A stretch of 32,000 nucleotides of DNA from Candidatus Tremblayella phenacoccinincola. Lineage in GTDB: Bacteria > Pseudomonadota > Gammaproteobacteria > Burkholderiales > Burkholderiaceae. The translations under genes and the position numbers were made by a program. Under the pieces are notes generated by a model, which was not told the origin of the DNA, ran no database searches, and saw nothing but the letters and a program-made list of their open reading frames with translations. The first letter of the stretch is position 1, and each line of letters opens with the position of its first letter. The stretch covers positions 1 to 32,000 of the forward strand of contig NZ_VMQO03000001.1 of NCBI RefSeq assembly GCF_009805595.3. The letters run 5' to 3'. Positions 1-32,000 of the stretch are shown here, one piece after another.

Positions 1-21
1 CCTAGAAAAACCCCTCCCTCT

Positions 22-100
22 CTATGCTCTATGCTCTATGGACTACCTCTATGGACTACCTCTATGGACTACCTCTATGGACTACCTCTATGGACTACCT
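22..100 (+). repeat. Tandem repeat array: 2 x CTATGCT followed by 5 perfect copies of the 13-bp unit CTATGGACTACCT
   Basis: Read directly. The 13-bp units start at 36, 49, 62, 75 and 88 with no mismatches. Confidence 0.95.
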
Positions 101-333
101 ACCCCTCTCCCTCAACCTGAAGACTCTCTCTCTCCCTCAACCTCATTCTCATTCTCATTCGCTTACCTCCCTGCCTCAAACCCCACAACCCTCCTCTCTA
201 GCTTCTTCTCCTTCAAGACCTTCTAGCTTCTCCTTCTCCTTCAAGTTCTTAGCTTCTCCTTCTCCTATCTCCTTCTCTTTCTTCTAGCTCTATCTTCTAC
301 CACCCACACCTCTCTTGAATTCAGAAAACTATT
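101..333 (+). repeat. Pyrimidine-rich (C/T) low-complexity leader upstream of secA with internal degenerate repeats
   Basis: CTCCCTCAACCT occurs at 107-118 and 132-143. CATTCT x3 lies at about 144-161. A roughly 25-bp module TAGCTTCT..CCTTCAAG is repeated 2-3 times at about 199-265. Purines are scarce on the + strand. Confidence 0.85.
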
Positions 334-2604
334 ATGTTAAAAGAATACATACAGCAAACAACGAGAATTCATGGCCTAGAACCCTACTTCAAATCCCTGA
401 AAGATGTTACATTCAAACTCAAAACGAATGCACTTAGACTTTTCTTGAAAACAAACGTATCTTTTAACAAGCTTCTCCCATATGCTTTTGCTTCATTTAA
501 GGAGGCTTGTTATAGACTAATAGGCCTCAGACTACATGATACTCAGTTGCTAGGAGGACTTGCTTTATGTAGTGGCAAGGCAGTGGAAATGAAGACGGGA
601 GAAGGTAAAACATTGGCAATTGCGGCTGCCGCTTTTGCCTGCTCACTGTTCAACTCAGGAGTTCACATTGTAGTCCCTAGTGACCATCTTACAAAAAGGG
701 ACAGTGAGCTAACACAGGACGTATTTGAATTCTTAGGGACCTCAGTAGGTAAAGCTGTTACAGGCCTGGCTAACAACTCAAAAAGAACAGCATACAATTC
801 AGATATAACTTACGTTTCTTTCAGTGAGCATATATTTGATTATCTTCAAGACCACCTGGCGTATAAGGGCCAAGAATATGTTCAAAGGAGAAAACAAAGC
901 TGCTCGATAGTGATAGTTGATGAGGTTGATTCTATATTAATAGATGAAGCTGAGACACCTTTCATTGTCTCCACATCTAAAAATAACTCTACATACCTTC
1001 ATGCTCAGATGAACAAAGCTATCAAGCTTTTTGTATATGAAACCAGAAAAGCATTCTCCCCCCGTTTCCTATACTACTCCAACCAACCTAAACAACTGCT
1101 TTTAACTGAACTAGGTTTTATTAAGACTGAAAACCTACTAATAAACGCTAACCTCATTAGAAACGGATATCAACTGTATACTCCCAAAAGCTACCATCTA
1201 ATAAATATGATGTACGTGCTGCTAAAGGCTTACAAAACAGTTAGTAAAGATAGAGACTACATCATTCGCAACGGAGAAGTAATAATTATTGCTAAGCTAA
1301 CCGGTAGACTCTTGCCTAACAAACGTTGGTCCAATGGAGTACATCTGGCTGTCGAAACAAAAGAAGCTCTCAAAACAAGGAAAGACAGCCAGGCTATAGA
1401 CCAGCTAACACTCCAGAGTTATTTTAGTATGTACAGTAGTCTATCAGGAATAACAGGAACCGCAAACGAAACACAAGAACTCAAAAGCCTGTATAACCTG
1501 GAAACAGTCGTCATTCCAACAAACAAACCACAAGGCAGATATGATGAACCAGACAGAATATGTTTGACGGTTCGCGATAGAATTATAGGAGTTATCAGAG
1601 ATATTCAGAGTTGTTATAAACGTGGACAGCCAGTATTAGTTGGAACACAATCGGTAGAACAATCTGAAGAGCTTTCTGTTATGTTAAACAACATTGGGTT
1701 TCCTCACGAACTATTGAATGCTAAAAGCCAGCTGTTAGAACCCATAGTTGTTGCAAACGCTGGAAAGCCAAATAAGATAACTATAACGTCCTGCATTGCA
1801 GGCAGGGGAACAAACATATTGTTAGGGGGTTTAGTATATTTTGACCACAACACCAAAGACCAAACCTACTTCAAGTCCAAAAGGTTAGGCGGTCTAAGAG
1901 TCATCGGCATTGGTAGACATAACCTAAGAAAAGCTGATGTACAGCTAATCGGTAGAGCTGGGAGACAAGGAGAGGCTGGCACTTCCTGCTTTTATGTGTC
2001 CTTAAAGGACAGGCATCTAAATAGATTATCCGTAGACCCCAGAATGCTTGCTCAAACCATTGAAAGCATCCAAAAAAGAACTCAGACTAAAAGCCTATAC
2101 CAAAAAACACAACTAGCAAGCTTCAGCAACATCTTGGACTTCCAAAGATATACAATACATATGTTGAGAAGAAAGCTAACTTCTAAAACCCAATCAGAAG
2201 CCTTTGTACTCAAAGCCAAGAAGTGGCCAGGCAACTGTTATAGTTATTCTTGGTCTAAAAAGCTAAAAGTAACATTGAGCTTAAACCTTTTTAAGAGAGC
2301 TGGAGCTGCATATTCGAACTCTTGGTTTAGTCTCTTAGTTAACCTAAACCAATTGGCCTGTATTGAATTGACAGGGATACAAAAGAGAAAAGAGCTGGAG
2401 AAAAGCTTATTATTAGGTTCAATGGATTCAATATGGATGAATCACCTTAGGTTTTTAAACAGCTCTCACTGGAACCTAATCTTAAGTCTTCAACCTTTCA
2501 ACAAGCCCCACATTCAATACATTCAGAACACTTTGAAGCTACTTAAACGGATGGTCGCTTATTTAGCTCTCGATGTTCTATGCCTGTCAGAAGTAGGAAT
2601 CTAA
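334..2604 (+). CDS. secA: Preprotein translocase ATPase SecA (divergent, no C-terminal zinc-finger tail)
   Basis: 756-aa ORF that aligns along its length with E. coli SecA as I remember it. Matching motifs include MKTGEGKT, DEVDSILIDEA, RWSNGVHLAVE, TGTA, GQPVLVGT, AGRGTN, GRAGRQGE and SMDSIWMNHL. Confidence 0.93.
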   Translation: MLKEYIQQTTRIHGLEPYFKSLKDVTFKLKTNALRLFLKTNVSFNKLLPYAFASFKEACYRLIGLRLHDTQLLGGLALCSGKAVEMKTGEGKTLAIAAAAFACSLFNSGVHIVVPSDHLTKRDSELTQDVFEFLGTSVGKAVTGLANNSKRTAYNSDITYVSFSEHIFDYLQDHLAYKGQEYVQRRKQSCSIVIVDEVDSILIDEAETPFIVSTSKNNSTYLHAQMNKAIKLFVYETRKAFSPRFLYYSNQPKQLLLTELGFIKTENLLINANLIRNGYQLYTPKSYHLINMMYVLLKAYKTVSKDRDYIIRNGEVIIIAKLTGRLLPNKRWSNGVHLAVETKEALKTRKDSQAIDQLTLQSYFSMYSSLSGITGTANETQELKSLYNLETVVIPTNKPQGRYDEPDRICLTVRDRIIGVIRDIQSCYKRGQPVLVGTQSVEQSEELSVMLNNIGFPHELLNAKSQLLEPIVVANAGKPNKITITSCIAGRGTNILLGGLVYFDHNTKDQTYFKSKRLGGLRVIGIGRHNLRKADVQLIGRAGRQGEAGTSCFYVSLKDRHLNRLSVDPRMLAQTIESIQKRTQTKSLYQKTQLASFSNILDFQRYTIHMLRRKLTSKTQSEAFVLKAKKWPGNCYSYSWSKKLKVTLSLNLFKRAGAAYSNSWFSLLVNLNQLACIELTGIQKRKELEKSLLLGSMDSIWMNHLRFLNSSHWNLILSLQPFNKPHIQYIQNTLKLLKRMVAYLALDVLCLSEVGI

Positions 2605-2632
2605 CCTAGAACAGACCTAGGAAAGGCTATTT

Positions 2633-2641
2633 CCCCCCCCC
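2633..2641 (+). repeat. C9 homopolymer between secA and rplU
   Basis: Counted directly. It lies 29 nt after the secA stop. Confidence 0.95.
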
Positions 2642-2660
2642 TCTGACAAACATATGTATA

Positions 2661-2690
2661 CATAAACATAAACATAAACATAAACATAAG
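2661..2690 (+). repeat. Hexanucleotide tandem repeat (CATAAA)4 plus one imperfect unit CATAAG
   Basis: Units start at 2661, 2667, 2673, 2679 and 2685. Confidence 0.95.
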
Positions 2691-2743
2691 CCTACTGCTG
2701 CTCTATATTTCTGAATGCTAAACCTATACTAAAGCTAACCCAT

Positions 2744-3202
2744 ATGAACGAACAAGAAGAGCAACCAAAATGTATGGTATTTCAGATCGGGAATGAAGCC
2801 CATGTTCACAACTTAGGCTACGCTATAATAAAACTAAACGGCAAACAGTATAAGACACAGATAAACAAAAGAGTGATTGTAGATCGAATGGGTTTACCAG
2901 AAGGTAGGCTGTTTTATCTACATAATGTACTCCTTCATATACATTGTAACAAAACCAACATTGGACAACCTACTCTCGAAGGAACCCGAGTAACTGCAAT
3001 GGTTTCAAGGCACTTCAAAACCAAAAAGATAGAAATCCTAAAGCACAAAAGAAGAAAGCATCACATGAAGAGCCAAGGATACAGAAGCCTACGTACTGAA
3101 ATTATCGTAACAAACATTCAGACTACCCAGTTGCTAACATGGCCCAAAAGAAAGCAGGCGGTTCTACTAGGAACAATAGAGACTCGAGGTCCAAGAGGCT
3201 AG
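2744..3202 (+). CDS. rplU: 50S ribosomal protein L21 (extended at both ends relative to the canonical ~103 aa)
   Basis: The core [12 protein letters not shown]...[26 protein letters not shown] parallels E. coli MYAVFQSGGKQHR...[25 protein letters not shown]. The internal ATG at 2774 is the more likely start. The ORF runs 64 nt into rpmA. Confidence 0.85.
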
Positions 3203-3402
3203 GTATCAAAGCTTACAGTGGGGTCTTAGTAATGCCAGGTTCCATTGTTGTACGTCAGAAAGGCACAAAGATCCATCCTGGTAAAAACGTAGGTACTGGA
3301 AAAGACCACACATTGTTCGCATTGACTAAAGGAGTAGTGAGGTATCACTGGAATGACTCTAGAAAGCTGGTAGAAGTTCGAATGGTGCTCCGTAATAACT
3401 AA
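3139..3402 (+). CDS. rpmA: 50S ribosomal protein L27
   Basis: [47 protein letters not shown]. The N-terminus is near-identical to the E. coli L27 N-terminus. Confidence 0.95.
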
Positions 3403-3500
3403 CAATACAGAGCCTTCCCCAAACAGCTGTTTAATAACAATACTCTTGGGTTTTCCAATAGCTAACACATATTATAGTTATTATATTATTTAGTTATAAA

Positions 3501-3516
3501 CCCCCCCCCTTTTTTA
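3501..3516 (+). repeat. C9 homopolymer immediately followed by a T run, 22 nt upstream of the dnaB ATG
   Basis: C run counted at 3501-3509, followed by T from 3510. Confidence 0.95.
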
Positions 3517-3531
3517 ACTATAACAAAAGCT

Positions 3532-4929
3532 ATGAATATAATAAATAACCCAACCTCCCATATAAAAGCTAAGCTAGAAACTAACCATAATAGAAAAAGG
3601 AAGGCATTACCACATTCTTTAGAAGCAGAGCAAACAATATTAGGTTGTCTAATGGTAGATAATAATATATGGACTGAAATAGCAACTGTTATTTCGGAGC
3701 AAGACTTTATGGAAAGAAGCCATAGGATAATATATAATGAAATGAAACTGTTATTAGAAACCCATAAACCAATTGATCTTATTACACTTTCCGACTCATT
3801 AGAACAAAAAGATAAGTTAACTATGATTGGTGGTTCTTCTTATTTAGCTGATCTATATAAACCCATTGCAAATACTGCTAACATTTTAGAATATGCTGCT
3901 ATTGTTAAAGATAGAGCAATAAAACGAGAACTAATCAAAACAGCTCAAGAGTTAATTAATAATAGCTATAGTCCGAAAGGTAAAAGTAGCTCTGAGTTAT
4001 TGGCAATAGCTGAGTCAAAGATATTTCATATAGCTGAGCATAGAGTTAATGAAAGCAATGGCCCTAAACCTATTGATAATATCTTAGGGAAAACAGTTGC
4101 TAATATAGAAAAGGCATTTAAAAGTTCTAAGAAAGGTATTACTGGTCTTTCTAGTGGATATTATGAGTTAGATATAAAAACGTGTGGTTTACAAAAGTCT
4201 GACTTAATTATCATTGCGGCAAGACCTTCAATGGGTAAAACAACATTAGCTTTAAATATATGCGAAAATGCTGTTGTTAATGAAAATAAACCAGTGTTGA
4301 TATTTAGTTTAGAAATGCCTAGTGACCAAATAATGATAAGAATATTAGCTTCTTTATCAAAGATCAATCAAACAAATATAAGGACTGGACAGCTGAATAG
4401 TAATGACTGGTCAAGGCTTTCTAATACTATGAATATGCTCTTAAAAAAGAAGAACCTATATATTGACGACTCTCCTGAACTAACGCATACAGACTTAAGA
4501 ACAAGAGCTAAACGTATCTATCGAGAATATAACGGACTTAGTTTAATTATGGTAGACTATATGCAGCTAATGAAAGTACCGTCTTTATCAGAGAATAGAG
4601 CATTAGAAATAGCTGAAGTTTCACGTTCATTAAAAGCCTTAGCTAAGGAATTGCAAGTACCTATATTAGCGCTTTCGCAACTAAATAGAAACTTAGAACA
4701 GAGGGTTGATAAACGTCCAATAAACTCAGATCTACGAGAGTCGGGTTCGATTGAACAAGATGCTGACTTAATATTATTTATATATCGAGACGAAGTATAT
4801 CGAGGTTGTGTTAACTCAGGAATGAATGGAATAGCAGAAGTTATTATTGGAAAGCAACGAAATGGCCCTACTGGAACTATTAAGTTAAGGTTTAATGGCC
4901 AGCTGTCGCGCTTTGATAGCTATAGTTAG
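3532..4929 (+). CDS. dnaB: Replicative DNA helicase DnaB
   Basis: 465 aa. N-terminal LPHSLEAEQTILG, Walker A ARPSMGKTT, FSLEMP, VDYMQLM, ALSQLNR and EQDADL. Confidence 0.95.
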   Translation: MNIINNPTSHIKAKLETNHNRKRKALPHSLEAEQTILGCLMVDNNIWTEIATVISEQDFMERSHRIIYNEMKLLLETHKPIDLITLSDSLEQKDKLTMIGGSSYLADLYKPIANTANILEYAAIVKDRAIKRELIKTAQELINNSYSPKGKSSSELLAIAESKIFHIAEHRVNESNGPKPIDNILGKTVANIEKAFKSSKKGITGLSSGYYELDIKTCGLQKSDLIIIAARPSMGKTTLALNICENAVVNENKPVLIFSLEMPSDQIMIRILASLSKINQTNIRTGQLNSNDWSRLSNTMNMLLKKKNLYIDDSPELTHTDLRTRAKRIYREYNGLSLIMVDYMQLMKVPSLSENRALEIAEVSRSLKALAKELQVPILALSQLNRNLEQRVDKRPINSDLRESGSIEQDADLILFIYRDEVYRGCVNSGMNGIAEVIIGKQRNGPTGTIKLRFNGQLSRFDSYS

Positions 4930-4980
4930 ATTAGTTCTTTCAGTACAATATTGTTTTAGGAATGTCTATAAACTATGCTT

Positions 4981-4990
4981 CCCCCCCCCC
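4981..4990 (+). repeat. C10 homopolymer between dnaB and frr
   Basis: Counted directly. It lies inside the 5' end of the ORF-track frr ORF but upstream of the region homologous to RRF. Confidence 0.95.
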
Positions 4991-4994
4991 ATAT

Positions 4995-4999
4995 AGGAG
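4995..4999 (+). promoter_or_regulatory. Shine-Dalgarno AGGAG serving a TTG start of frr at 5010
   Basis: AGGAG lies 10 nt upstream of the in-frame TTG. Confidence 0.6.
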
Positions 5000-5009
5000 C
5001 ACATATAAC

Positions 5010-5570
5010 TTGAATACAATAGATATATGTAAAGACTATGAACTTCAAGCAGGAAAATATATAGAAGCCTTTATAAGAAATATTAACAACTATAGAACAG
5101 GAAGAGCTTCTCCTGATTTACTTAATGGAATCAAAATAAAATATAATAATAAAATAGCTTCTATACGTCAACTAGCTTCTATTACTTTAGAGTCCACAAA
5201 GTCTGTGATTATCACTGCTTTTGATAATTCACTACTTCCAATAATAAATAAAAGTATTATCGCTGCTAACTTAGGGTTAAGCTCTTATTTAGAAACCAAT
5301 TTAGTTCGTATCTTATTTCCAGACCTTTCTGAAACCTATAGAAATAAGTTAGTTAAGTTGGTTCAGAATGAAGCTGAAAAGGTAAGAGTTATTATTCGAA
5401 ATACAAGACGTATGTTTAATAATAAACTAAAAGACTTATTTAAAAAGAAGTTGTTTAGTAAAGATAATATGGAAGCTCTTCAAATAAAAATACAATCTAT
5501 TACTGATTGCTTTATAAAAAAGGTTAATAGCATAGCTATATGTAAAGAAGCAGAAGTTCTTAATCGTTAG
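5010..5570 (+). CDS. frr: Ribosome recycling factor (start reassigned to TTG 5010; the ORF track starts at ATG 4962)
   Basis: From the TTG the product (M)NTIDICKDYE...RTGRASPDLL aligns residue for residue with E. coli MISDIRKDAE...RTGRASPSLL. The 16 upstream codons (MSINYASPPPYRSTYN) have no RRF counterpart and are the poly-C tract plus the SD. Confidence 0.88.
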   Translation: MNTIDICKDYELQAGKYIEAFIRNINNYRTGRASPDLLNGIKIKYNNKIASIRQLASITLESTKSVIITAFDNSLLPIINKSIIAANLGLSSYLETNLVRILFPDLSETYRNKLVKLVQNEAEKVRVIIRNTRRMFNNKLKDLFKKKLFSKDNMEALQIKIQSITDCFIKKVNSIAICKEAEVLNR

Positions 5571-5676
5571 CTTATATGTATTATTTTATATAGAACTTCG
5601 GGTTTCCATTCGGTTAGTGACTTCGAGAAGCATTAAGGATTCACCGTCATTTAAATTCGAAAGAGCAGTTAACAAA

Positions 5677-5704
5677 GAACTAAGAACTAAGAACTAAGGA
5701 CTAA
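5677..5704 (+). repeat. Heptanucleotide tandem repeat (GAACTAA)3 plus one imperfect unit GGACTAA, ending 5 nt before the tal ATG
   Basis: Units start at 5677, 5684, 5691 and 5698. Confidence 0.9.
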
Positions 5705-5709
5705 AAAGA

Positions 5710-6678
5710 ATGAATATGACTGCTTTAGGTTTTTTGAAGAAATATACAACAGTTGCTTTGGACAGTGGAAACTATTTGGAAGTAGCAAAGCTCCAACCGA
5801 ACGATGTTACTACAAACCCTTCGTTGATTCTAAAAGCAACAAAAGACAAAGAGTGTTTAGCGTTTATAGATGGGGTAATTTCATCATACAATTCTTACGC
5901 TACTTCTGAAATAATAAACCAGATCTTAGTACATCTTGGCAATGAAATCCTGAAGCATATTCCTGGTTCTGTTTCTATTGAGTTGAACGCTGACTATGCT
6001 TTTAATGTTGAAAAGTCTATGGAACAGTTAGCTGAGCTTTTAAAGTTGTGCAAAGCGTTTAATATACAGGACAGAGTTCTGATTAAGGTGCCTGCAACAT
6101 GGGAAGGAATCCAAGTATTAAGATTAGCTAGGAAAAAGAACGTAAGATGCAATATGACGTTGGTATTCTCTTTAGTTCAAGCAGTTTTGTGTGGTGAATC
6201 CAAAGCCTATCTCATTTCTCCATTTGTAGGACGGGTATCTGATATGTACACAAGCTTAATCTCTAACTGCAAAAAACAGAATGAGTCTTTAGATGTTGGT
6301 GTTCAACTTCTTGAACAAGTGTATCAATATTTCAGACATAACAATTACAACACTAAAATAATGGCAGCAAGCTTTAGGAATATTGAACAAGCTCTATCCG
6401 TAGCAGGCTGTGACTATGTAACTTTAAGTCCTGATATCTTCTTGGAACTCAAGAATGAGCAGCGTTTACATCCAACAGCAGTTTTAAGAGTTAGCCATAC
6501 TTCCAAATGGAAACAAACCATAGACCTGAAACCAATCTGGAGACAAGAGCTCTTTTATAGAACATTAAGACAAAATGGTAACGCATACAAAAACCTAATA
6601 AACGGGGTCTACACATTCAGGAAAGCTACTCAGGAGCTAACAAAATACATTGAAAAGCGAGTCTGTGGCGGATGTTAG
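5710..6678 (+). CDS. tal: Transaldolase (TalB type)
   Basis: 322 aa. TTNPSLIL, the catalytic-Lys context VLIKVPATWEG, ISPFVGR and ASFRN match E. coli TalB motifs. Confidence 0.92.
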   Translation: MNMTALGFLKKYTTVALDSGNYLEVAKLQPNDVTTNPSLILKATKDKECLAFIDGVISSYNSYATSEIINQILVHLGNEILKHIPGSVSIELNADYAFNVEKSMEQLAELLKLCKAFNIQDRVLIKVPATWEGIQVLRLARKKNVRCNMTLVFSLVQAVLCGESKAYLISPFVGRVSDMYTSLISNCKKQNESLDVGVQLLEQVYQYFRHNNYNTKIMAASFRNIEQALSVAGCDYVTLSPDIFLELKNEQRLHPTAVLRVSHTSKWKQTIDLKPIWRQELFYRTLRQNGNAYKNLINGVYTFRKATQELTKYIEKRVCGGC

Positions 6679-6879
6679 GAGGAAAGGTATTTAGGTGGTT
6701 TCAATGATGTTGCTTCTGTCAGTAGGTGTTTAGGACTAACAAGCTGTTATTGTTTGGGTGACTTACAGCCTTTGTATAGAGTTATTGGAATGTATTATAG
6801 AGGGGGAAATAGCTGTTAGATATAGAGCTAGGAGGGTTTGTATTGTAGTGGTTAGGGCAGTGGATATTGCTTTGGGTTG

Positions 6880-7080
6880 TGTTGAAGGTATTTGGTGGTG
6901 CTATTGGGGGGGAAGGTAAAGGTAGGAAGGGGAAAGAAGGTAAAATGTATTGGATGTGTTGAGGGGGAAGCCTGGGGGGAAAAGGAAGAGTAGTAAAGAG
7001 GTAGAAAGGAAAGGAAAGGAAAGGAAGGACTTGTTATAGGTTTTGGGGGGAGGGAGAGAAGGGGAAGGTTTTGATTGAGG
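6880..7080 (-). repeat. G/purine-rich low-complexity tract on the + strand (C/T-rich on the - strand) with multiple G runs and (GAAAG)4-5
   Basis: G7 at 6906-6912, G5 at 6963-6967, G6 at 6974-6979, GAAAG units at 7004-7028, G6 at 7045-7050. Confidence 0.85.
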
Positions 7081-7214
7081 CTTCACCATTAATTCGTTTA
7101 GTTGAAGTTATGCTTATGGTTATGTTTATGGCTGTTGTCTTCACTATGAAATACCTGGTAGTTCTAGGTTCTAATGCGTGCAGCTATAGGCATGGACATA
7201 CCACCTGTTGGGGA

Positions 7215-7435
7215 AAGAGCTTCCTATTATATCTCTCTTCTTCTATACCCATCTTCTATACCCATCTTCTTCTCCTACCATTCTCCTCTCTCATTCTCCT
7301 CTTCTCTCACACACTCCCAGTCTTTCACACACATTTATTTCCAACTCCCTCACACCCTCCTTCTCTTCCACCATCATCAACCTTCTTCTTCATCAACACA
7401 GAGACAAACCTAATATCTAATAGACCTCCACCCAT
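7215..7435 (+). repeat. Pyrimidine-rich low-complexity leader upstream of rpsI, including 2 x 13-bp CTTCTATACCCAT (7240-7265)
   Basis: Read directly. Purines are nearly absent on the + strand. Confidence 0.85.
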
Positions 7436-7493
7436 ATAACATATAGTACAGACAGAACTAGAAACCCTGTCTCAAAGACCACATCTTTCAACT

Positions 7494-7503
7494 GGAGAGG
7501 GAG
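7494..7503 (+). promoter_or_regulatory. Shine-Dalgarno-like GGAGAGGGAG upstream of rpsI
   Basis: It ends 6 nt before the ATG at 7510. Confidence 0.55.
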
Positions 7504-7509
7504 AACTAA

Positions 7510-8234: not shown

Positions 8235-8241
8235 AATAGCT

Positions 8242-8249
8242 CCCCCCCC
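8242..8249 (+). repeat. C8 homopolymer between erpA and ilvD
   Basis: Counted directly. It lies 8 nt after the erpA stop. Confidence 0.95.
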
Positions 8250-8343
8250 AATAGAACCTGAAACCCAAAAGCTGAATAATATATAGAGACTGGCAGATTA
8301 GAACGACAGGTTATGATACAGCTTCAAGGTTAGCTACTAATAT

Positions 8344-10035: not shown

Positions 10036-10054
10036 AACAAACACCTGAAAGCCA

Positions 10055-11771: not shown

Positions 11772-11865
11772 ATTGGTTCTTATTAGCTGTCTTTTATATA
11801 GCTGCTAGTCCTTTAGAGAATGGGGGGAAAGGTTTCTATAGGTCTTACCTACTTATAGCTTATAG

Positions 11866-12455: not shown

Positions 12456-12461
12456 TTCCTT

Positions 12462-21904: not shown

Positions 21905-21908
21905 TATA

Positions 21909-23105: not shown

Positions 23106-23126
23106 ACTACAATAACTAATAAAATA

Positions 23127-24545: not shown

Positions 24546-24547
24546 CA

Positions 24548-24757
24548 TTAACGAATACGAAATAGAAACCTACCTCTATTTAAAACATAAGGAGTGACTT
24601 CAACAATTACTTTATCTCCTGTTAAAAAACGTATATAGGGTTTACGTAAACTATGAACCATAACAACATGACCATTTACTAACTCTACAAGAAAGCTAGC
24701 ATTAGGTAATATTTCTAGGATAGTACCTTGTAGCTCAATAGTTATAGCTTTTATCAT
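24548..24757 (-). CDS. infA: Translation initiation factor IF-1
   Basis: 69 aa. [26 protein letters not shown] and [17 protein letters not shown] parallel E. coli IF1. Confidence 0.93.
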
Positions 24758-24775
24758 TAACTAATCCTTTTAGTT

Positions 24776-24782
24776 GGGGGGG
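24776..24782 (-). repeat. C7 homopolymer on the - strand (G7 on the + strand) between the trxB stop and the infA start
   Basis: Counted directly. It lies 18 nt upstream of the infA ATG on the infA sense strand. Confidence 0.95.
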
Positions 24783-24784
24783 TT

Positions 24785-25726
24785 TTAACCACATATGCTA
24801 TTAAAAAAAGCTTTAGTATCTAAAGCAGCCATACACCCACTTCCAGCTGAAGTTATTGCTTGTCGATAGTAACTATCAACAGCATCTCCTGCCGCATATA
24901 CACCAGGAATAGAAGTAGCTGTTGAACTATTAAACCCAGTTCTTGTTTTAATATAGCCTTTATTTAATAATAGCTGTTCCTTAAAAACACTAGTATTAGG
25001 AACATTGCCTATTGCGATGAAAAGACCATCAACAGATATCTTTTTAATATTATTATTGATAATGCTTTTTAGTTTTATGTTAGTAACATATGTTTTATTA
25101 CCTAATATTTCTTCAACGATATGATTCAAATGTAAAACAATAGCTTTATTTAAAACCTTAAACATTAGCTTTTTTATTGTTATAGCTTCCGCTTTAAAAT
25201 AGTTACGACGATGGATTAGGTGTGTTTTATTGGCTATATCTGATAAAAATAGAACTTCTTCTAAGGCGGAGTTTCCCCCACCTATTACCCCTACGTTTTT
25301 GTTATGGTAAAAATATCCATCACAAATAGCGCAGGTTGAAACTCCTTTTCCTTTATAAAACCCTTCTGATTCTAATCCTAAATATTTAGGTGAAGAGCCA
25401 GTAGCGATGATTAATGAATCACAATAGTATTTTTCATTACCTAATAAATAGAAAGGCTTTTCAAGTAAGTTAGTCTTGATAATACTATCAAATATAAGCT
25501 TTACTTTAAGTTTAACTACGTGAGAATACATACGTTCCATTAAAAGCTGGCCAGTTAAACCTTCAGCTTCTCCAGGCCAGTTTTCAATATTATTTGTATT
25601 AATTAACTGACCACCTATCGAATTTCCAGTTATTAGTATTGGTTTTATATTAGATCTAGCTGCGTATATTGCAGCTGTATATCCGGCAGGACCTGTTCCT
25701 AATATAATTAGCTTATAGTAGTTCAT
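24785..25726 (-). CDS. trxB: Thioredoxin reductase
   Basis: ILGTGPAGYTAAIYAAR, redox CAICDG, GGGNSA.EE, HLIHRR, AAGD and YRQAITSAGSGCMAALD. Confidence 0.95.
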   Translation of the reverse strand: MNYYKLIILGTGPAGYTAAIYAARSNIKPILITGNSIGGQLINTNNIENWPGEAEGLTGQLLMERMYSHVVKLKVKLIFDSIIKTNLLEKPFYLLGNEKYYCDSLIIATGSSPKYLGLESEGFYKGKGVSTCAICDGYFYHNKNVGVIGGGNSALEEVLFLSDIANKTHLIHRRNYFKAEAITIKKLMFKVLNKAIVLHLNHIVEEILGNKTYVTNIKLKSIINNNIKKISVDGLFIAIGNVPNTSVFKEQLLLNKGYIKTRTGFNSSTATSIPGVYAAGDAVDSYYRQAITSAGSGCMAALDTKAFFNSICG

Positions 25727-25784
25727 ATGCTTTTGTAGTAGATATTTATTAAAAGAACTAAGTTAAAGAATAATAACATAGGTA

Positions 25785-25858
25785 GCCGATATAGCTTAGT
25801 AGGTTAGAGCAACGCTTTCGTAATGCGAAGATCATAGGTTCAACTCCTATTATCGGCA
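25785..25858 (+). tRNA. tRNA-Thr (anticodon CGU); no encoded CCA
   Basis: Hand-folded cloverleaf. Acceptor GCCGATA/TATCGGC is perfect, with A73. D stem GCTT/GAGC. Anticodon loop TTCGTAA. T arm ATAGG-TTCAACT-CCTAT. It is very similar to E. coli thrW as I remember it. Confidence 0.9.
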
Positions 25859-25868
25859 TAGATTCTAA

Positions 25869-26315
25869 CTATATTATGAAAGATCTATATATTGTTTTTA
25901 TAACCAAATAATAAGCTTTAAAACCAAACCCAACTAGAACGTCTGTAGCAATATCAGAGAAATAGGATCTGTGTCGAAAGGCTTCTCTAGCAGCTATATT
26001 AGATATATGAAGTTCAATAAAAGACATATTTACTGCTAATAAAGAGTCTCTAATAGCTATGCTGGTATGTGTGTGGCCTGCAGGGTTAATAACCATATAA
26101 TCAATATATCTATAGGTTTGATGCACATAGTCAGTTAACAGATATTCTGAGTTAGTTTGAAAGTATTCTATTTCTATACCAGCTGGTAAGTATAGTTCAG
26201 TAATATCTGCTATAATAGACGATATAGTTATATAGCCATATTTATCAGTCTCTCGAATACCTAACATATTAAGATTTACGCCATTAAGGAATAAGATACG
26301 GGTAGTCTTTATCAT
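25869..26315 (-). CDS. aroQ: Type II 3-dehydroquinate dehydratase
   Basis: 148 aa. ILFLNG.NLN.LG.RE...YG, FQTNSE, INPAG.THTS.A.RD and H.SNI..RE.FRH.SY.S. Confidence 0.9.
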   Translation of the reverse strand: MIKTTRILFLNGVNLNMLGIRETDKYGYITISSIIADITELYLPAGIEIEYFQTNSEYLLTDYVHQTYRYIDYMVINPAGHTHTSIAIRDSLLAVNMSFIELHISNIAAREAFRHRSYFSDIATDVLVGFGFKAYYLVIKTIYRSFII

Positions 26316-26500
26316 GGTAGAGGCCTTTAGCAGAAGCTGTTAGAAGATGTAGAAGCTGTTATAGGATTAGAAACTATAGAAGCTATATAGAACCTAGCTA
26401 ATAGACGTATATGCAAGGGAGAAGAACCGTAAATACAGTTAAGTTAGTAGTTGGTTCTTGGTTCTGCTAATACTTTAGTATATGGTTTAGGTTAGACATA
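26316..26500 (-). repeat. Low-complexity spacer that is purine-rich on the + strand (C/T-rich on the aroQ sense strand) with reiterated TAGAAGCT(G/A)T modules
   Basis: AGAAGCTGTTA occurs twice and TAGAAGCTATA once within 26334-26392, read by eye. Confidence 0.8.
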
Positions 26501-26811
26501 AGCTTTCCCCCCAGTTAAGACCAACACATCATAACACAGATTCAAAGAGCTATCCTCTCCTTCCCCCATATATACCTACCGCATCTGTCTCATACTCTGG
26601 TTTTAATCCTTCAACAGCTTATTGATTAACCGGACAACCAGTAGGTCTTTCCCCCTTTCTAGTTCATATTATTAACACTTCCTCCTTCTCCTTAAACACT
26701 AACTAACCCCCTCCCCCCCCCTTCCTTCCTTTCCTTTAGTCTCAACCACCCTCCTGAGAAGACCTAAACACTCCCCACCCTACCTCCACAATACCTACCA
26801 TCTAACCCTAA
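26501..26811 (+). repeat. Pyrimidine-rich low-complexity leader upstream of leuC with C6 (26507-26512), C5+C9 (26707-26711, 26713-26721) and CTTCC/CTTTC repeats
   Basis: Read and counted directly. Confidence 0.88.
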
Positions 26812-28197
26812 ATGACCTCAGCAACCTTGTACGATAAGCTTTGGAATACGCATGTCATTAAAATACAGAACAGCGGTGTGTCCTTGTTATATGTAGATAT
26901 TCACTTTATTCACGAAGTAACATCTCCACAGGCATTTGAAGCTGTTAACCAATATGTCCATAGCCCTAAAACCACTCTAGCCATTCCAGACCACAATATT
27001 ACAACCAATCCAGAAAGAAACAAAAACACTAACTTCGGTTCTCAAATAGAGCTACTAAGAACAAACTGTAAGAACCATAGCATAAGCTTTCTATCAGGCC
27101 ATGATGAAAAACAAGGCATAGTCCATGTTGCAGGACCAGAATTAGGAATAACAACTCCAGGCTCAAGTATTGTATGTGGAGATTCTCATACTTCAACACA
27201 CGGCTCTTTTGCTTCTCTGGCGCAAGGCATAGGTACTTCTGAAGTTGGAAATACCTTGACGTCACAAACGCTTCTTCAAAGGAAGAACCGATCTATGGAA
27301 GTTAGCATAGCAGGTAAACTGCAAGCTGGATGTGCAGCTAAAGATGTAGCATTAGCTTTAACTAAAACAATAGGAGTTTCTGGAGGTTCAAGTTATTCTA
27401 TAGAGTTCAAAGGAGACACATCCCAAAGGACGGCAGTAAATTGTCGTTCAACATTGTGTAATATGTCCATAGAAGCTGGTGCAAAGGTTAGTTTGTTATC
27501 AGTTGACAACATGCTTCTTAATTATCTAAACAACCGAACGCTATACGTTCATACTTTAAGTTCTAACCCCTGGAAGAACCTAAGAACAGACCTTAGTACA
27601 GTGTTTAATAAATGCATCTCAATTAACGTAAACTCAATAGCTCCTCAAGTAACTTGGGGAACATCTCCTGAAATGGTTTCTTCAGTCGAAGATAGAGTTC
27701 CAGACCCTGCATATGAATCCAATCCTGACAAAAGAAAAACTATGGAAACTGCCCTTAGCTACATGCTTTTAGAACCAGGTAGGCCTATTAACACAATAAA
27801 CCTAGACTACGTTTTCATTGGTTCCTGTACTAATAGTCGAATAGAAGATTTAAGAAGCGCAGCAAGTATTGTTAGAAAGCTGAACAAAACCGTTGATAAA
27901 AGAATTAGGAAAGCAATTGTTGTTCCAGGTTCTGGCTCTGTAAAAAAACAAGCAGTAGCAGAGGGTCTTGATAAGATATTCAAGAACGCTGGGTTCGAAT
28001 GGCGTAATCCTGGCTGTTCTATGTGTATCGCAATGAATTCAGACAGGCTATTCCCAGAGGAAAGATGTGCTTCTACTTCTAACAGAAACTTTGAAGGAAG
28101 ACAGGGGAAGCTTAGCAGAACACACTTAGTCAATCCAATGATGGCGGCATTGGCAGCTATTAGTGGTAAGTTCCAAGATACTAGAAGAGTGGTTTAA
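26812..28197 (+). CDS. leuC: 3-isopropylmalate dehydratase large subunit
   Basis: LYDKLW..HV, HEVTSPQAF, GIVHV.GPE.G.T.PG..IVCGDSHT.THG, FIGSCTNSRIEDLR, PGCSMC and CASTSNRNFEGRQG. Confidence 0.95.
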   Translation: MTSATLYDKLWNTHVIKIQNSGVSLLYVDIHFIHEVTSPQAFEAVNQYVHSPKTTLAIPDHNITTNPERNKNTNFGSQIELLRTNCKNHSISFLSGHDEKQGIVHVAGPELGITTPGSSIVCGDSHTSTHGSFASLAQGIGTSEVGNTLTSQTLLQRKNRSMEVSIAGKLQAGCAAKDVALALTKTIGVSGGSSYSIEFKGDTSQRTAVNCRSTLCNMSIEAGAKVSLLSVDNMLLNYLNNRTLYVHTLSSNPWKNLRTDLSTVFNKCISINVNSIAPQVTWGTSPEMVSSVEDRVPDPAYESNPDKRKTMETALSYMLLEPGRPINTINLDYVFIGSCTNSRIEDLRSAASIVRKLNKTVDKRIRKAIVVPGSGSVKKQAVAEGLDKIFKNAGFEWRNPGCSMCIAMNSDRLFPEERCASTSNRNFEGRQGKLSRTHLVNPMMAALAAISGKFQDTRRVV

Positions 28198-28785
28198 ATG
28201 GAGAAAGTGATAATACACAGAGGGGTTATTATCAGTATCGAAAAAGATAACATAAACACTGACATCATTCTTCCAAAGCAGTTCTTAAAAGTAACGTCCA
28301 AATGCAAACTCGGATGCTATCTATTCAGCGAATGGAGATGCCCTTCAAACCAATCCAATAGTGAGCCCTTTCCATTAATGCTAAGGACAAGCAACAAAGT
28401 CTCTGTCCTGCTAGTTAGGAAAAACTTTGGCTGTGGTAGTTCAAGAGAGCATGCGCCTTGGTCTATTAAGCAATATGGTTTAAACATTCTCATTGGGATT
28501 AGCTTTGCTGACATATTCTACGTTAATGCTATTAAGAATGGGATATTACCTCTAACTCTAAAAGAAACCGATGTAGCATATATAGCTCAGCTCTTAGCAA
28601 ATGCTCCTAGGTTTCAGATTACGGTGAACTTAATGGACAGAAAGATAACCTCGAACTCATATAAAGCCTGGCCGTTTTGTGTTCCTTCCTTTTATCGCTT
28701 AGCATTATTGAGAGGCTTGTCAGAAACTGAATTAATCCTTAAACACATCAAGGATATCATAAGCTTTGATAGAAGCAATGAGTGA
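28198..28785 (+). CDS. leuD: 3-isopropylmalate dehydratase small subunit
   Basis: NTD.I.PKQFLK, NFGCGSSREHAPW and SFADIFY.N. The ATG directly abuts the leuC TAA. The gene ends on TGA. Confidence 0.9.
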   Translation: MEKVIIHRGVIISIEKDNINTDIILPKQFLKVTSKCKLGCYLFSEWRCPSNQSNSEPFPLMLRTSNKVSVLLVRKNFGCGSSREHAPWSIKQYGLNILIGISFADIFYVNAIKNGILPLTLKETDVAYIAQLLANAPRFQITVNLMDRKITSNSYKAWPFCVPSFYRLALLRGLSETELILKHIKDIISFDRSNE

Positions 28786-28857
28786 ACCCGAACTTCTTAA
28801 TTATGGTTATATATTATTATTATTATAACGAAAGCATATGAGCCGTATATATGAATA

Positions 28858-29937
28858 TTGCTGTTCTACCCAGGTGATGGAATAGGTCCTGAAGTTATTA
28901 AGGAATCAATCAAGGTACTGAACGCACTGAGCATACACCAAATAACCATTAAGGAATCTCTTATTGGCAGAACAGCTTTTGAAGCCACTGGTAGTTTTTT
29001 GCCTGAATCAACAATAAGTCTGGTTAAGACAAGCGATGCAGTTTTGCTTGGTGCAGTAGGAGCTAACAGGACTTCTGACATTACATACTACCCTGGTCCT
29101 GAAACAGCACTTTTAAAACTAAGAAAGTTAATGAGATCCTCCATAAACCTCAGACCAATCAAGCACTACGATTCCATTAACACCAACGGCTCTAATGTCT
29201 CTAATGTCTCTAATGTGCAGGGCACTGACATATTGATTCTGAGAGAGCTAACCAGTGGAGTTTACTTTGGTAAGCCAAAAAACGTAAGAAAGCTATACAC
29301 TCAGAACAATGCAGTATCGCTAGAAGGTTTTGATACAATGAAGTATTCTGATTCAGAAGTTAGAAGTATAGCGCACGTTGCTTTTAAAACCGCTAGGTCT
29401 CGTAAAAAGAAAGTACTATCAGTGGACAAAGCAAATGTACTCGAAGCTTCCAAAGTATGGAGGAACATGGTTTTAGAAGTATCCAAGTGTTATAATGATG
29501 TTAGACTATGGAACAATTACGTTGATAGTGCAGTAATAGAAATATTATCGAACCCAAAAGAATTCGATGTAGTTCTTTCTGGTAATCTTTTTGGAGACAT
29601 TCTTTCTGACCAACTTTCAATAGTCTCTGGTTCTTTAGGAATGCTGCCTTCTGCATCCTTGGGTTTTAATGGGAAAGGCATGTATGAACCAGTTCATGGA
29701 TCAGCTCCAAACTTAACACACAGGAACTTGGCTAACCCAATAGCTGCTATTCTTTCGTTATCGATGCTGTTAAGATATTCGTTCCATCTAAACAAACAGT
29801 CAACTATGATTGATAATGCAGTAGATAACATTCTAAGAAAGAACTATAAAACAGCAGATATCTCCAACGGTAAAAGATATGTTAGTACGTCTGAAATGGG
29901 AGAGCTGATCGCTTCATTAATTAGAACTGCTTTTTAA
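28858..29937 (+). CDS. leuB: 3-isopropylmalate dehydrogenase (ORF as drawn starts at TTG; the canonical N-terminus is out of frame at ATG 28851)
   Basis: PGDGIGPEV, LRPIK, LRELTSGVYFG, DKANVL, NLFGDILSD, GSLGMLPSAS and YEPVHGSAP....N.ANP.A.ILS..MLLRYS. Confidence 0.9.
   Translation: MLFYPGDGIGPEVIKESIKVLNALSIHQITIKESLIGRTAFEATGSFLPESTISLVKTSDAVLLGAVGANRTSDITYYPGPETALLKLRKLMRSSINLRPIKHYDSINTNGSNVSNVSNVQGTDILILRELTSGVYFGKPKNVRKLYTQNNAVSLEGFDTMKYSDSEVRSIAHVAFKTARSRKKKVLSVDKANVLEASKVWRNMVLEVSKCYNDVRLWNNYVDSAVIEILSNPKEFDVVLSGNLFGDILSDQLSIVSGSLGMLPSASLGFNGKGMYEPVHGSAPNLTHRNLANPIAAILSLSMLLRYSFHLNKQSTMIDNAVDNILRKNYKTADISNGKRYVSTSEMGELIASLIRTAF
29191..29217 (+). repeat. In-frame 9-bp tandem triplication (TCTAATGTC, TCTAATGTC, TCTAATGTG) inside leuB, encoding SNVSNVSNV
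   Basis: Read directly. Confidence 0.95.
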
Positions 29938-29946
29938 TATCTAAGA

Positions 29947-31026
29947 ATGCCAGGAAGAACCTGTATTGGAATTGTAGGTTGGAGAGGCTTGGTAGGTTCG
30001 GTATTTATCAAACAGCTTGCTGCTAACATTAACAACGAAAACACTAAGTTCATATTTCTTAGTAGCTCATACAAAAGGTTGATTAAGATCTTAAAAGGAA
30101 GCTACTACGTAAAGAAAGCTAACGACGTTAAAGCTCTATTAAAATGCAAAATTATTGTTACAATGCAAGGCAGTGGCTACACTGATATCACACTTGCTAA
30201 GCTAAGAAACCTGAATTGGGTTGGCTATTGGATTGACGCAGCGTCTTCTCTTAGAAGGTTGCTTAATGTGTGTGTAGTGTTGGACCCCGTAAACTCTAGT
30301 AACATCAAAAGATCCATAGAAGCCAGCAAAAAGAGTTTCGTTGGTGGAAACTGCACCGTTAGTTTAATGCTAATGGCGTTACATAGTTTAATCAGGAGAA
30401 GCAAGATGAAATGGATGTTCGTTACAACTTTTCAATCTGTTTCAGGTGCTGGCGCCAACTACGTTAAGAGCTTGCTGTTACAGATGGCAGTATTGAGTAG
30501 AGTTAGGTTTAGGAATGTGATAAGCTCAAGTATTCAGTTTAGAATAAGCGACCCAAACGCAAGTGAAACTGTTGCTGGTTCAATTGTGTCTTGGATAGAT
30601 GAAGAAACGAATAAGTTAGGAACGTCAAAGGAAGAGCAAAAGGGTCTTATTGAAGCTAACAGGATATTAGACTTACCAATGAAGATTCACGTTGGTGGAG
30701 TGTGTGTAAGAGTTGGAGTGTTAAGATGCCATTCACAAAGCTTTCTAATTAAGGTTGAAAGAAAAATGTGTTTTGGCTGTGTTGCTGATATAATTCAATC
30801 GACCAGCAGATGGGTTAAGTTATTGCCAAATAGAAAACCATACTCAAGGTTACTATTAACTCCTGAAGTTATCTCTGGGTCTTTGGTGATTGCTATTGGT
30901 AGGCTAAAGAAAATGGCATTCAATAGTGGACTCCTATCAATGTTTACAGTAGGTGATCAGCTGTTATGGGGGGCTACAGAACCTATAAAGCGAACACTTA
31001 AACTCTTTTGTCCAACCACGAACTAA
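29947..31026 (+). CDS. asd: Aspartate-semialdehyde dehydrogenase
   Basis: IGIVGWRGLVGSV, YWIDAASSLR, active-site FVGGNCTVSLMLMAL, VRVGVLRCHSQSF and FTVGDQLLWGA.EP parallel E. coli Asd. Confidence 0.93.
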   Translation: MPGRTCIGIVGWRGLVGSVFIKQLAANINNENTKFIFLSSSYKRLIKILKGSYYVKKANDVKALLKCKIIVTMQGSGYTDITLAKLRNLNWVGYWIDAASSLRRLLNVCVVLDPVNSSNIKRSIEASKKSFVGGNCTVSLMLMALHSLIRRSKMKWMFVTTFQSVSGAGANYVKSLLLQMAVLSRVRFRNVISSSIQFRISDPNASETVAGSIVSWIDEETNKLGTSKEEQKGLIEANRILDLPMKIHVGGVCVRVGVLRCHSQSFLIKVERKMCFGCVADIIQSTSRWVKLLPNRKPYSRLLLTPEVISGSLVIAIGRLKKMAFNSGLLSMFTVGDQLLWGATEPIKRTLKLFCPTTN

Positions 31027-31170
31027 TCATATGTTGGACCTCGTTCTTTCAGTCTACAATGCAGATGGGTGTGGTGGGTTCTGTTAGAAGTCTCAGTAGG
31101 TAAAGTAATTGACTGAGGAACCTATCCACCTGAGGTTATCGTACATCTTCTTAACAAGAGCATAACTATT

Positions 31171-32000
31171 ATGTATAGAAACGCACAAAGGTATGTACAT
31201 TTAAGGATGCATTCAGAGTTCTCAATATTAGATGGCACTATCAGGCTAAATGAAGCGTTAGAATGCGCAAAGGCAAACAGACAAGGGGCTTTAGCTTTAA
31301 CTGATCTCAATAATATGTTTGGAGCAATAAAGTTTTATAAGCTATCAAGAATTCAAGGCATTAAACCAATAGTCGGATGTAACCTATCAATTAAACATGG
31401 TAGTTCTGAAAGTAGGAACAAAAGCAATATCATTTTGCTAGCCACTAACGTACAAGGGTATCGTAATCTTTGTAAAATAGTTACTATGGCTTGGACAAAT
31501 CATAATATCAACAGCTATTCAGTTCTCGATGCATATAACATAACTCAAAGATCTTCCAGTTCAATAGCTATAGAAAGAGAATACCTGAAAGGAGAGCTAA
31601 CAAGAGGTCTCATAGTTTTATCAGGAGCAACACAAGGAAACATAGGACAGGCCATAATGGACGGAGAAATGCATGCTGCGAGAAACCTGTTGAATGAATG
31701 GTTAGAAGACTTCTCTGGTAGTTTTTATGTTGAGATTCAACGTAGCGGCCAACAAAGCGAGGAGCGTTATATAGATGGTGCAATAGAAATAGCTGTGAAT
31801 TCTAGAACACCAATCGTAGCAACACATCCAATTCAGTTTCTCAAATCAACAGACTTTCAAATGCATGAAGTCAGGGCTTGTATTTCTGAGAATAAGACTC
31901 TTTTTAATAAACAAAGAGCCAAGAAATACACATATGAACAGTATTTCAAATCCAAAAGAGAGATGTGCAGCCTATTTAAAGATATCCCTTCAGCTTTAGA
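31171..32000 (+). CDS. dnaE: DNA polymerase III alpha subunit, N-terminal PHP domain (partial; runs off the window). It is missing from the ORF track because there is no stop in the window.
   Basis: I translated by hand from ATG 31171 and found no stops to 32000. YVHLRMHSEFSILDG, GALALTDLNNMFGAIKFY, GIKPIVGC, YVEIQR and PIVATHPIQF fit the DnaE N-terminus. Confidence 0.9.
   Translation, partial: MYRNAQRYVHLRMHSEFSILDGTIRLNEALECAKANRQGALALTDLNNMFGAIKFYKLSRIQGIKPIVGCNLSIKHGSSESRNKSNIILLATNVQGYRNLCKIVTMAWTNHNINSYSVLDAYNITQRSSSSIAIEREYLKGELTRGLIVLSGATQGNIGQAIMDGEMHAARNLLNEWLEDFSGSFYVEIQRSGQQSEERYIDGAIEIAVNSRTPIVATHPIQFLKSTDFQMHEVRACISENKTLFNKQRAKKYTYEQYFKSKREMCSLFKDIPSAL

Follow-up and report, generated by a model that had tools for sequence, protein, structure and literature searches.

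Gene content and composition of the window

The present analysis concerns the first 32,000 nucleotides (nt) of contig NZ_VMQO03000001.1 (RefSeq assembly GCF_009805595.3, Candidatus Tremblayella phenacoccinincola), referred to below as the window, in which genes of betaproteobacterial and of gammaproteobacterial type appear to alternate on one DNA molecule. All 28 gene identities were confirmed, by Pfam families in the proteins themselves, by Pfam families of the orthologues in the related genome of 'Ca. Tremblaya phenacola' strain PPER, or by tblastn to Escherichia coli. The G+C content of the whole window is 35.6%, and a sliding-window profile together with block totals divides it into seven segments of alternating composition, with borders where a first-pass annotation of this DNA had placed them. 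Four moderate blocks, at 1-3470 (B1, G+C 0.400), 5591-10760 (B2, 0.388), 12319-18227 (B3, 0.377) and 26316-32000 (B4, 0.385), enclose three AT-rich blocks at 3471-5590 (G1, 0.310), 10761-12318 (G2, 0.284) and 18228-26315 (G3, 0.306). Genes of the former are referred to here as beta-class and genes of the latter as gamma-class.

The two classes are also separated at the level of individual genes, by the G+C content at third codon positions (GC3), which bears out the two sequence styles described in the first-pass annotation. GC3 ranges from 0.241 to 0.443 (mean 0.348) in the 16 complete genes of the moderate blocks and from 0.180 to 0.234 (mean 0.206) in ten genes of the AT-rich blocks, and the two ranges do not overlap (Mann-Whitney U = 160 of a possible 160, p = 2.8e-5, 16 vs 10 genes); infA (0.129) and the partial dnaE (0.297) agree with the blocks in which they lie. 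The low-GC3 genes form three runs, and the probability of three or fewer runs for ten of 26 genes is 0.005. A synonymous-codon classifier, trained solely on four genes verified by homology (lon and leuC vs aceE and obg), assigned all 24 remaining genes to the blocks previously proposed, with thin margins for rpsI (log-likelihood ratio, LLR, +0.002), dnaE and aroQ (LLR -0.018). Both styles occur on both strands (15 plus and one minus for the beta-class; six plus and four minus, or five minus with infA, for the gamma-class), and the cumulative GC skew showed no switch at the block borders, so that the view of the first-pass annotation that no strand effect is involved holds as well.

In the following, genes lie on the plus strand unless stated otherwise, and Tables S1, S2 and S5 are those of the published description of strain PSOL (Bai et al. 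2024, ISME J 18:wrae052, PMC11014885). Block B1 carries secA (334-2604), rplU (2744-3202) and rpmA (3139-3402). SecA (GC3 0.371) is 37% identical to the E. coli protein and 78% identical to its PPER orthologue, which contains the SecA Pfam families, and the gene is listed as betaproteobacterial in Table S5. The product of rplU, ribosomal protein L21, matches Pfam Ribosomal_L21p over residues 26-125, is 29.5% identical to its E. coli counterpart and belongs to the beta-class by composition (GC3 0.379). The rplU reading frame encodes 152 residues vs 103 in E. coli; the product is longer by about 25 residues at its N-terminus and is extended at its C-terminus as well, where the frame runs into rpmA for 64 nt. 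The two genes overlap in the same manner in PPER (2607-3062 and 2999-3262). The rpmA gene (L27; beta-class, GC3 0.443) encodes a product 92% identical to that of PPER and is included in the published beta tree.

Block G1 consists of dnaB (3532-4929) and frr (4962-5570). DnaB (GC3 0.234) is 60.6% identical to E. coli DnaB and appears in the published gamma tree; frr carries the Pfam family RRF, has a GC3 of 0.207 and was called gamma by the classifier. A search against solved structures did not discriminate for DnaB, with two different DnaB sequences on top that scored equally at about 585 bits. We take these two chains to be the DnaB proteins of E. coli and Vibrio; a betaproteobacterial comparator is not known to us. 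In the same kind of search, transaldolase, the product of the first gene of block B2, was equally close to E. coli TalB chains and to several other transaldolases. That gene, tal (5710-6678; GC3 0.347), is listed as betaproteobacterial in Table S5, and it is followed by rpsI (7510-7908; GC3 0.241; Tables S1 and S5, beta), which is the weakest compositional call in its class, and by erpA (7908-8234; Pfam Fe-S_biosyn; GC3 0.349; Table S5, beta). The ilvD gene (8344-10035; Table S5, beta) encodes a short, 563-residue protein that is 33% identical to the 616-residue E. coli IlvD and, in a search of a representative library, 53% identical to the representative of an IlvD cluster of about 560 residues, in keeping with the short type proposed in the first-pass annotation. 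The block ends with sspB (10055-10495; Pfam SspB; GC3 0.374), which is beta-class by composition.

Block G2 holds obg (10761-11771; GC3 0.190), assigned by homology, and ribH on the minus strand (11866-12318; Pfam DMRL_synthase; GC3 0.192; Table S5, gamma). Block B3 begins with a ybeY-like gene (12462-12815) that is beta-class by composition (GC3 0.381); its product of 117 residues matches Pfam YbeY weakly, with 28 bits, over profile positions 22-102 of 129 and has a 118-residue orthologue in PPER. It is followed by der/engA (12833-14146; Pfam MMR_HSR1 twice and KH_dom-like; GC3 0.311), the sole beta-class gene on the minus strand, by clpX (14562-15767; GC3 0.346; 50% identical to E. coli; Table S5, beta) and by lon (15819-18227), assigned by homology. 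Compared with E. coli, Obg has 336 vs 390 residues and is devoid of the C-terminal tail, SecA has 756 vs 901, and the YbeY-like protein is likewise shortened to its 117 residues. As the PPER orthologues have the same lengths, the shortening seems to be a conserved reduction and not a sign of recent pseudogenes.

The largest AT-rich block, G3, opens with rsmH on the minus strand (18228-19106; Pfam Methyltransf_5; GC3 0.208), which is 45.5% identical to E. coli at the protein level and included in the published gamma tree, and continues with aceE (19208-21904; assigned by homology; 60.3% identical to E. coli), aceF (21909-23105; GC3 0.198) and lpdA (23127-24545; Pfam Pyr_redox_2 and Pyr_redox_dim; GC3 0.180; 49.5% identical to E. 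coli). Pfam Biotin_lipoyl is found once in AceF, together with E3_binding and 2-oxoacid_dh; the E. coli protein has three lipoyl domains. Downstream, infA (24548-24757; 69 residues; Pfam eIF-1a; GC3 0.129), whose product aligns to E. coli InfA, and trxB (24785-25726; GC3 0.197; 55.6% identical to E. coli; Table S5, gamma) lie on the minus strand. A tRNA-Thr(CGU) gene without an encoded CCA (25785-25858, plus strand) was found with ARAGORN and Rfam; with 66 of 74 positions identical, it is indeed close to E. coli thrW, as previously noted. The block closes with aroQ (25869-26315, minus strand; Pfam DHquinase_II, GC3 0.228), which encodes a type II dehydroquinase and is given as gamma in Table S5, for PSOL as well as for PPER.

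Block B4 comprises leuC (26812-28197), assigned by homology, leuD (28198-28785; GC3 0.408), leuB (28858-29937), asd (29947-31026; GC3 0.378) and the 5' part of dnaE (31171-32000; Pfam PHP domain; GC3 0.297; published beta tree). For leuD and leuB the best Burkholderiales match exceeds that to E. coli (41% vs 36% and 47% vs 42.5%), and for asd the values of 40.5% and 39.0% are ambiguous, so that this gene is counted as beta-class by synteny and composition. Two further open reading frames, at 24-287 and 7071-7439, were treated as spurious, as they have no family match and lie within low-complexity spacers.

Two ancestries

Homology searches with four proteins, each from a different block, support the view that the two styles correspond to two ancestries, the AT-rich class being probably derived from a gammaproteobacterium and the moderate class from a betaproteobacterium. 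For AceE, every named protein among the best 120 matches is from Enterobacterales (59-62% identity), and for Obg two T. phenacola entries are followed by named matches that are all gammaproteobacterial (46-53%); this agrees with the enterobacterial look that the first-pass annotation had ascribed to the AT-rich blocks, partly on the strength of peptide runs shared with E. coli. These runs, RFLKHLERC, WLVFNKID, GGHDPKKIYAAFKKA and SVTSFTELARDGQDCERWNMLHP, are all present both in the proteins of the window and in ObgE or AceE of E. coli K-12. On the other side, Lon is matched first by three entries of the Tremblaya lineage (100%, 84% to PPER and 79% to a third lineage, see below), after which nearly all named matches are from Burkholderiales (51-54%), two others being metagenome-assembled genomes labelled Bacillota; identity to E. 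coli Lon is 49%. LeuC is 82% identical to PPER and then matches 79 other Burkholderiales loci, nearly all from Burkholderiaceae, at 53-54%, compared with 48.6% for E. coli.

Gene order points in the same direction. The succession leuC-leuD-leuB-asd, proposed to be betaproteobacterial, is found in this order and on one strand in all 78 Burkholderiales loci that carry the four genes, whereas asd is remote from the leu genes in E. coli. In the AT-rich block G3, infA follows trxB on the same strand, and the E. coli order trxB-cydD-cydC-aat-infA, also on one strand, confirms the suggestion that the pair corresponds to this neighbourhood minus its middle genes. The betaproteobacterial character of the moderate blocks, as asserted earlier, is supported by homology or gene order for Lon, LeuC and the leu-asd cluster; for 1-3470 and 5591-10760 it relies on composition, on the published trees and on the low degree to which the proteins resemble those of E. 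coli. The taxonomic placement of SecA and IlvD failed in a search with SecA residues 1-630 and IlvD concatenated, in which the representatives found were nameless or from unrelated phyla, among them Deinococcus, Kaiserbacteria and Chitinophaga; the library consists of representatives of 50%-identity clusters and was informative on the short type of IlvD only. One oddly high-scoring AceE match proved to be an ordinary enterobacterial contig with pdhR-aceE-aceF-lpd and is irrelevant here.

The source genome and its relatives

The window is almost certainly part of the genome of 'Ca. T. phenacola' PSOL and not of that of PPER, as judged from protein identities and gene numbering; PSOL lives in the bacteriome of Phenacoccus solenopsis, the cotton mealybug (Bai et al. 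2024, PMC11014885). Lon is 100% identical to WP_226338813.1/KAH0998286.1 and Obg to KAH0998280.1, all of T. phenacola and encoded on a contig of 87,910 bp, of which the window would be the first 32 kb, and the gene order of the window follows the TPSOL_peg numbers in Tables S1, S2 and S5 of PMC11014885: peg2 is secA, 3 rplU, 4 rpmA, 5 dnaB, 7 tal, 9 rpsI, 10 erpA, 11 ilvD, 14 ribH, 18 clpX, 19 lon, 20 rsmH, 21-23 aceE/aceF/lpd, 25 trxB, 26 aroQ and 27-31 leuC/leuD/leuB/asd/dnaE. The G+C content reported for PSOL is 34.8% (PMC11014885), vs 35.6% in the window.

The fused genome is accordingly already known, for this very genome and for its sister. The first account was that of the 'beta-gammaproteobacterium collage' of PPER (Gil et al. 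2018, ISME J 12:124; summarised in PMC5664097), and Bai et al. 2024 (PMC11014885) described the beta/gamma fusion of PSOL, in which single contigs carry both kinds of genes and synteny with PPER is high; a later preprint cites both fusions as known. The first-pass annotation was therefore right in kind when it suggested PPER or a similar fusion, although the strain is not PPER itself but its sister PSOL, and its statement that PPER is the only precedent is superseded by the 2024 publication, so that the finding is not new.

PPER shows the same type of mosaic and the same GC3 split, and its contig 1 carries leuC-leuD-leuB-asd-dnaE; it differs from the window with 83-90% DNA identity and 74-92% protein identity. 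A further difference concerns pyruvate dehydrogenase, the E1 and E2 genes of which seem to be kept in PSOL only: neither aceE nor aceF of PPER is listed in Table S5 or found among the AceE matches, whereas PSOL has both. The best AceE database match outside the genome of the window is only 62% identical, and this want of a close relative would be explained by Table S5 having aceE and aceF for PSOL and none for PPER. Table S5 gives no PPER orthologue for aceE, aceF and lpd, and an lpdA entry, TPPER_00051, stands there under another function number.

Among other known systems, T. princeps of Pseudococcinae mealybugs and its gammaproteobacterial endosymbiont, such as Moranella endobia, likewise combine a betaproteobacterium and an enterobacterial partner that share amino-acid pathways as a patchwork. 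In those consortia, however, the genomes are separate (a cell within a cell) and that of T. princeps has about 58% G+C, while here both gene sets reside on one DNA molecule. An arrangement of two separate genomes in a nested consortium of the T. princeps type was accordingly rejected for the present case, the window being contiguous and its junctions kept across three lineages. For Phenacoccinae, a single type of bacteriome cell without a separate gammaproteobacterial cell has been reported in the literature. T. phenacola PAVE, from the same symbiont clade, is non-chimeric, with 170.8 kb and 42.2% G+C, and is not among the two genomes reported to be chimeric; synteny between PAVE and the beta genes of PSOL has been described (PMC11014885).

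Reality and age of the junctions

The six borders between beta- and gamma-class genes, J1 to J6, were compared with PPER. Contig 7 of PPER (MKGN01000007.1, 13,128 bp) carries secA-rplU-rpmA|dnaB-frr|tal-rpsI-erpA-ilvD-sspB|obg-ribH|ybeY-der, where vertical bars mark junctions, in the order and orientation of the window; these 14 genes match window positions 334-14146, and collinearity extends over 358-14250, including J1 to J4. The neighbours are thus the same at J1 (rpmA|dnaB, beta to gamma, 3403-3531), J2 (frr|tal, gamma to beta, 5571-5709), J3 (sspB|obg, beta to gamma, 10496-10760) and J4 (ribH|ybeY, gamma to beta, divergent, 12319-12461). J2 and J4 are each crossed without interruption by one blastn segment between the window and this contig, covering window positions 3570-6679 at 86.8% identity and 11860-14250, respectively. 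At J5 (lon|rsmH, beta to gamma, 18227-18228) the genes are convergent, and the same arrangement, clpX-lon|rsmH, is found on PPER contig 3 and on two Logan contigs from the runs SRR24008595 and SRR24008594, where one blastn segment spans window positions 14511-18837 at 83.6%. The stop codons of lon and rsmH (18225-18230) abut without a spacer in the window; the gap is 24 nt in PPER and 42 nt on the Logan contigs.

The clpX-lon|rsmH proteins of SRR24008594/95 are 79-80% identical to PSOL and 85-91% identical to PPER, and the pairwise identities yield the grouping (PSOL,(PPER, third lineage)). A literature search found no paper mentioning these two runs. They may contain a chimeric T. phenacola lineage that is the third of its kind, undescribed so far and sister to PPER, a proposition that we consider more probable than the separate compositional equilibria discussed below.

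As five of the six junctions are common to PSOL and PPER, J1 to J5 predate the split of the two strains, and J5 predates all three lineages, given the grouping derived from the identities. J6 (aroQ|leuC, gamma to beta, 26316-26811), a spacer of 496 nt with a pyrimidine-rich 3' half, is not common to PPER. Upstream of leuC, PPER has rpsU (beta, minus strand, 308-490 of contig 1) instead of aroQ, and of the spacer only about 90 nt (26457-26546) align to PPER; J6 is supported solely by the PSOL assembly. Since the upstream neighbour of leuC differs between the strains, J6 marks a rearrangement after their split, and hence at least one rearrangement is lineage-specific. The many recombination events proposed in the first-pass annotation occurred mostly before PSOL and PPER diverged, as five of the six junctions are shared.

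Origin of the mosaic

Very probably, the window represents betaproteobacterial genes of Tremblaya interleaved with genes of a former enterobacterial co-symbiont on one chromosome. Within the window, two composition classes coincide with two phylogenetic affinities and are physically linked, and five of six junctions recur in the sister genome. In line with the interpretation of Gil et al. 2018 and Bai et al. 2024, the genome of a Tremblaya probably merged with an enterobacterial one that was reduced and AT-rich by then, in an ancestor common to PSOL, PPER and the third lineage. The segments may then have been shuffled by recombination and inversions, and the loss of redundant or dispensable genes may have shrunk them to blocks of two to eight genes; the gamma genes would have come in AT-rich, with a compositional difference that is not yet erased. 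Several local traces would fit fusion followed by loss, namely the intact aceE-aceF-lpdA succession, the reduction of AceF to one lipoyl domain, the very short spacers of the gamma blocks and the adjacency of trxB and infA, which could be a remnant after deletion of cydDC-aat. The donor has been reported to be Sodalis-allied (PMC11014885, PMC5664097).

Several points weigh against this interpretation or limit its reach. Homology was tested here with proteins from four of the seven blocks; the betaproteobacterial origin of 1-3470 and 5591-10760, as stated above, is argued from composition, low E. coli identity and published gene trees, and the gammaproteobacterial origin of 3471-5590 from composition, E. 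coli identity and published trees. Among the AceE matches Sodalis is not set apart, as Arsenophonus, Sodalis, Buchnera and Blochmannia score alike; together with Doolittlea they are mixed among the top matches within 1213-1258 bits. Repeats of at least 30 nt, direct or inverted, that might show how recombination occurred were found at none of the junctions. The assignment to strain PSOL itself is based on protein identity plus peg numbering, and a stretch of 32 kb would be compatible with one whole-genome fusion as well as with several transfers.

That Tremblaya instead gained small gammaproteobacterial fragments singly by serial horizontal transfer, without a wholesale fusion, is unlikely in our view, even though some features of the window would be expected from it. 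Blocks are small, with a minimum of two genes, and E. coli offers no collinear counterpart to the gamma blocks: its dnaB and frr, and likewise its obg and ribH, are far apart. Of a large gamma segment in the ancestor, aceE-aceF-lpdA and trxB-infA are the only direct traces within the window. These microsynteny remnants, however, resemble deletion products of larger segments, and the gamma genes share one uniform codon usage. The published tables assign about 45% of the PSOL genes to gamma, including nearly all aminoacyl-tRNA synthetases, with little redundancy, and the published gamma tree groups the gamma genes of PSOL and PPER together as sister to Sodalis (PMC11014885), both of which speak against independent acquisitions. 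A classical genomic island was rejected too: no junction repeats of at least 30 nt were found, every reading frame is either housekeeping or without a family match, and the tRNA-Thr gene lies inside block G3, with aroQ between it and J6.

The lasting difference in composition is in line with a memory of the fusion, in that PSOL and PPER still agree at about 80% of fourfold-degenerate sites (0.80 in both classes), with a fourfold-site G+C content (GC4) of 0.23 in beta genes and 0.15 in gamma genes. It might instead be speculated that the two classes are separately maintained equilibria, owing to gene-class-specific mutation or selection, and are not a fading memory at all; we regard this as rather improbable. 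The same GC3 split is seen in the orthologues from PPER and the third lineage, and its equal size across three lineages descended from the fused ancestor would fit this possibility. When fourfold-site changes were polarised with three taxa, clpX and lon together yielded an equilibrium G+C of 0.24, which is near their present value of 0.23 and not near the 0.15 of the gamma genes, but this estimate is crude, underpowered and flawed, as PSOL, and not the third lineage, proved to be the outgroup and the counts are tiny (47 sites for rsmH), and no conclusion was drawn from it. In their proteins, PSOL and PPER reach an identity of about 0.80-0.85, which does not exceed the 0.80 seen at fourfold sites and suggests that protein sequences are under very relaxed constraint in both gene classes.

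An assembly chimera, in which reads of a co-resident Tremblaya and an enterobacterium were misjoined, would be conceivable, since mealybug bacteriomes often house Tremblaya plus a gammaproteobacterium and since Unicycler built the PSOL assembly from Illumina short reads combined with filtered PacBio reads of whole bodies. We consider it very improbable for the window, and for J1 to J5 it is effectively refuted. These junctions recur in PPER, which was sequenced and assembled separately from another host species, and J5 also in two further public runs; single alignment segments cross junctions at 83-87% identity, the genes at J5 abut without a spacer, and it is not credible that the same misjoins arose in three diverged genomes. 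Finally, a single lineage whose composition varies with expression level, strand or selection, for which the only argument is that such causes are able to produce heterogeneous G+C, has next to no probability and is already refuted by the homology results, with AceE and Obg going to Gammaproteobacteria and Lon and LeuC to Tremblaya/Burkholderiales, by the presence of both styles on both strands and by a GC skew without a switch at the block borders.

That two bacterial classes come to share a stable chromosome is among the most extreme outcomes of symbiont co-residence, and it bears on how merged genomes sort redundant functions. The window adds no new phenomenon to the fusions published for PSOL (Bai et al. 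2024) and PPER (Gil et al. 2018). What it adds is independent evidence that five of six local junctions are older than the PSOL/PPER split and one older than the third lineage, a lineage-specific junction showing that rearrangement went on after the fusion, a hint of a third lineage in public reads, and a reason to question three published origin labels of PSOL genes.

Published class labels

In Table S5 of PMC11014885, lon, asd and rplU of PSOL are labelled gamma, whereas the PPER orthologues of all three are labelled beta. All three PSOL genes are probably betaproteobacterial and the published gamma labels wrong: lon because nearly all named matches after the entries of the Tremblaya lineage are from Burkholderiales, with codon usage pointing the same way, asd because of its Burkholderiales gene order and beta codon usage, and rplU because of its beta codon usage and its pairing with rpmA. 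Relabelling them would slightly lower the gamma excess reported for PSOL. A related observation concerns TPPER_00065, which Table S5 gives as 'rpsI gamma'. Its number falls between dnaB (00066) and tal (00064), and the gene found there on PPER contig 7 has the RRF family, i.e. it is frr.

Spacers and low-complexity tracts

Spacers inside the gamma blocks measure 2-101 nt, and those of the beta blocks reach 831 nt. Low-complexity spacers with short tandem repeats occupy 1-333, 6679-7509 and 14147-14561 in beta blocks and 26316-26811 at J6. Three of them are strongly skewed: pyrimidines make up 73% of 1-333, 28% of 6780-7070 but 71% of 7210-7440 further on, and 67% of 26510-26811; unlike these three, the spacer at 14147-14561 is without a strong purine/pyrimidine skew. 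The tracts look PSOL-specific, because the matching spacers of PPER are shorter and unskewed, that between tal and rpsI measuring 158 nt in PPER vs 831 nt in the window. The tandem repeats include (CTCTATGGACTAC)x5 at 34-100 and (ACTGGC)x16 at 14351-14445.

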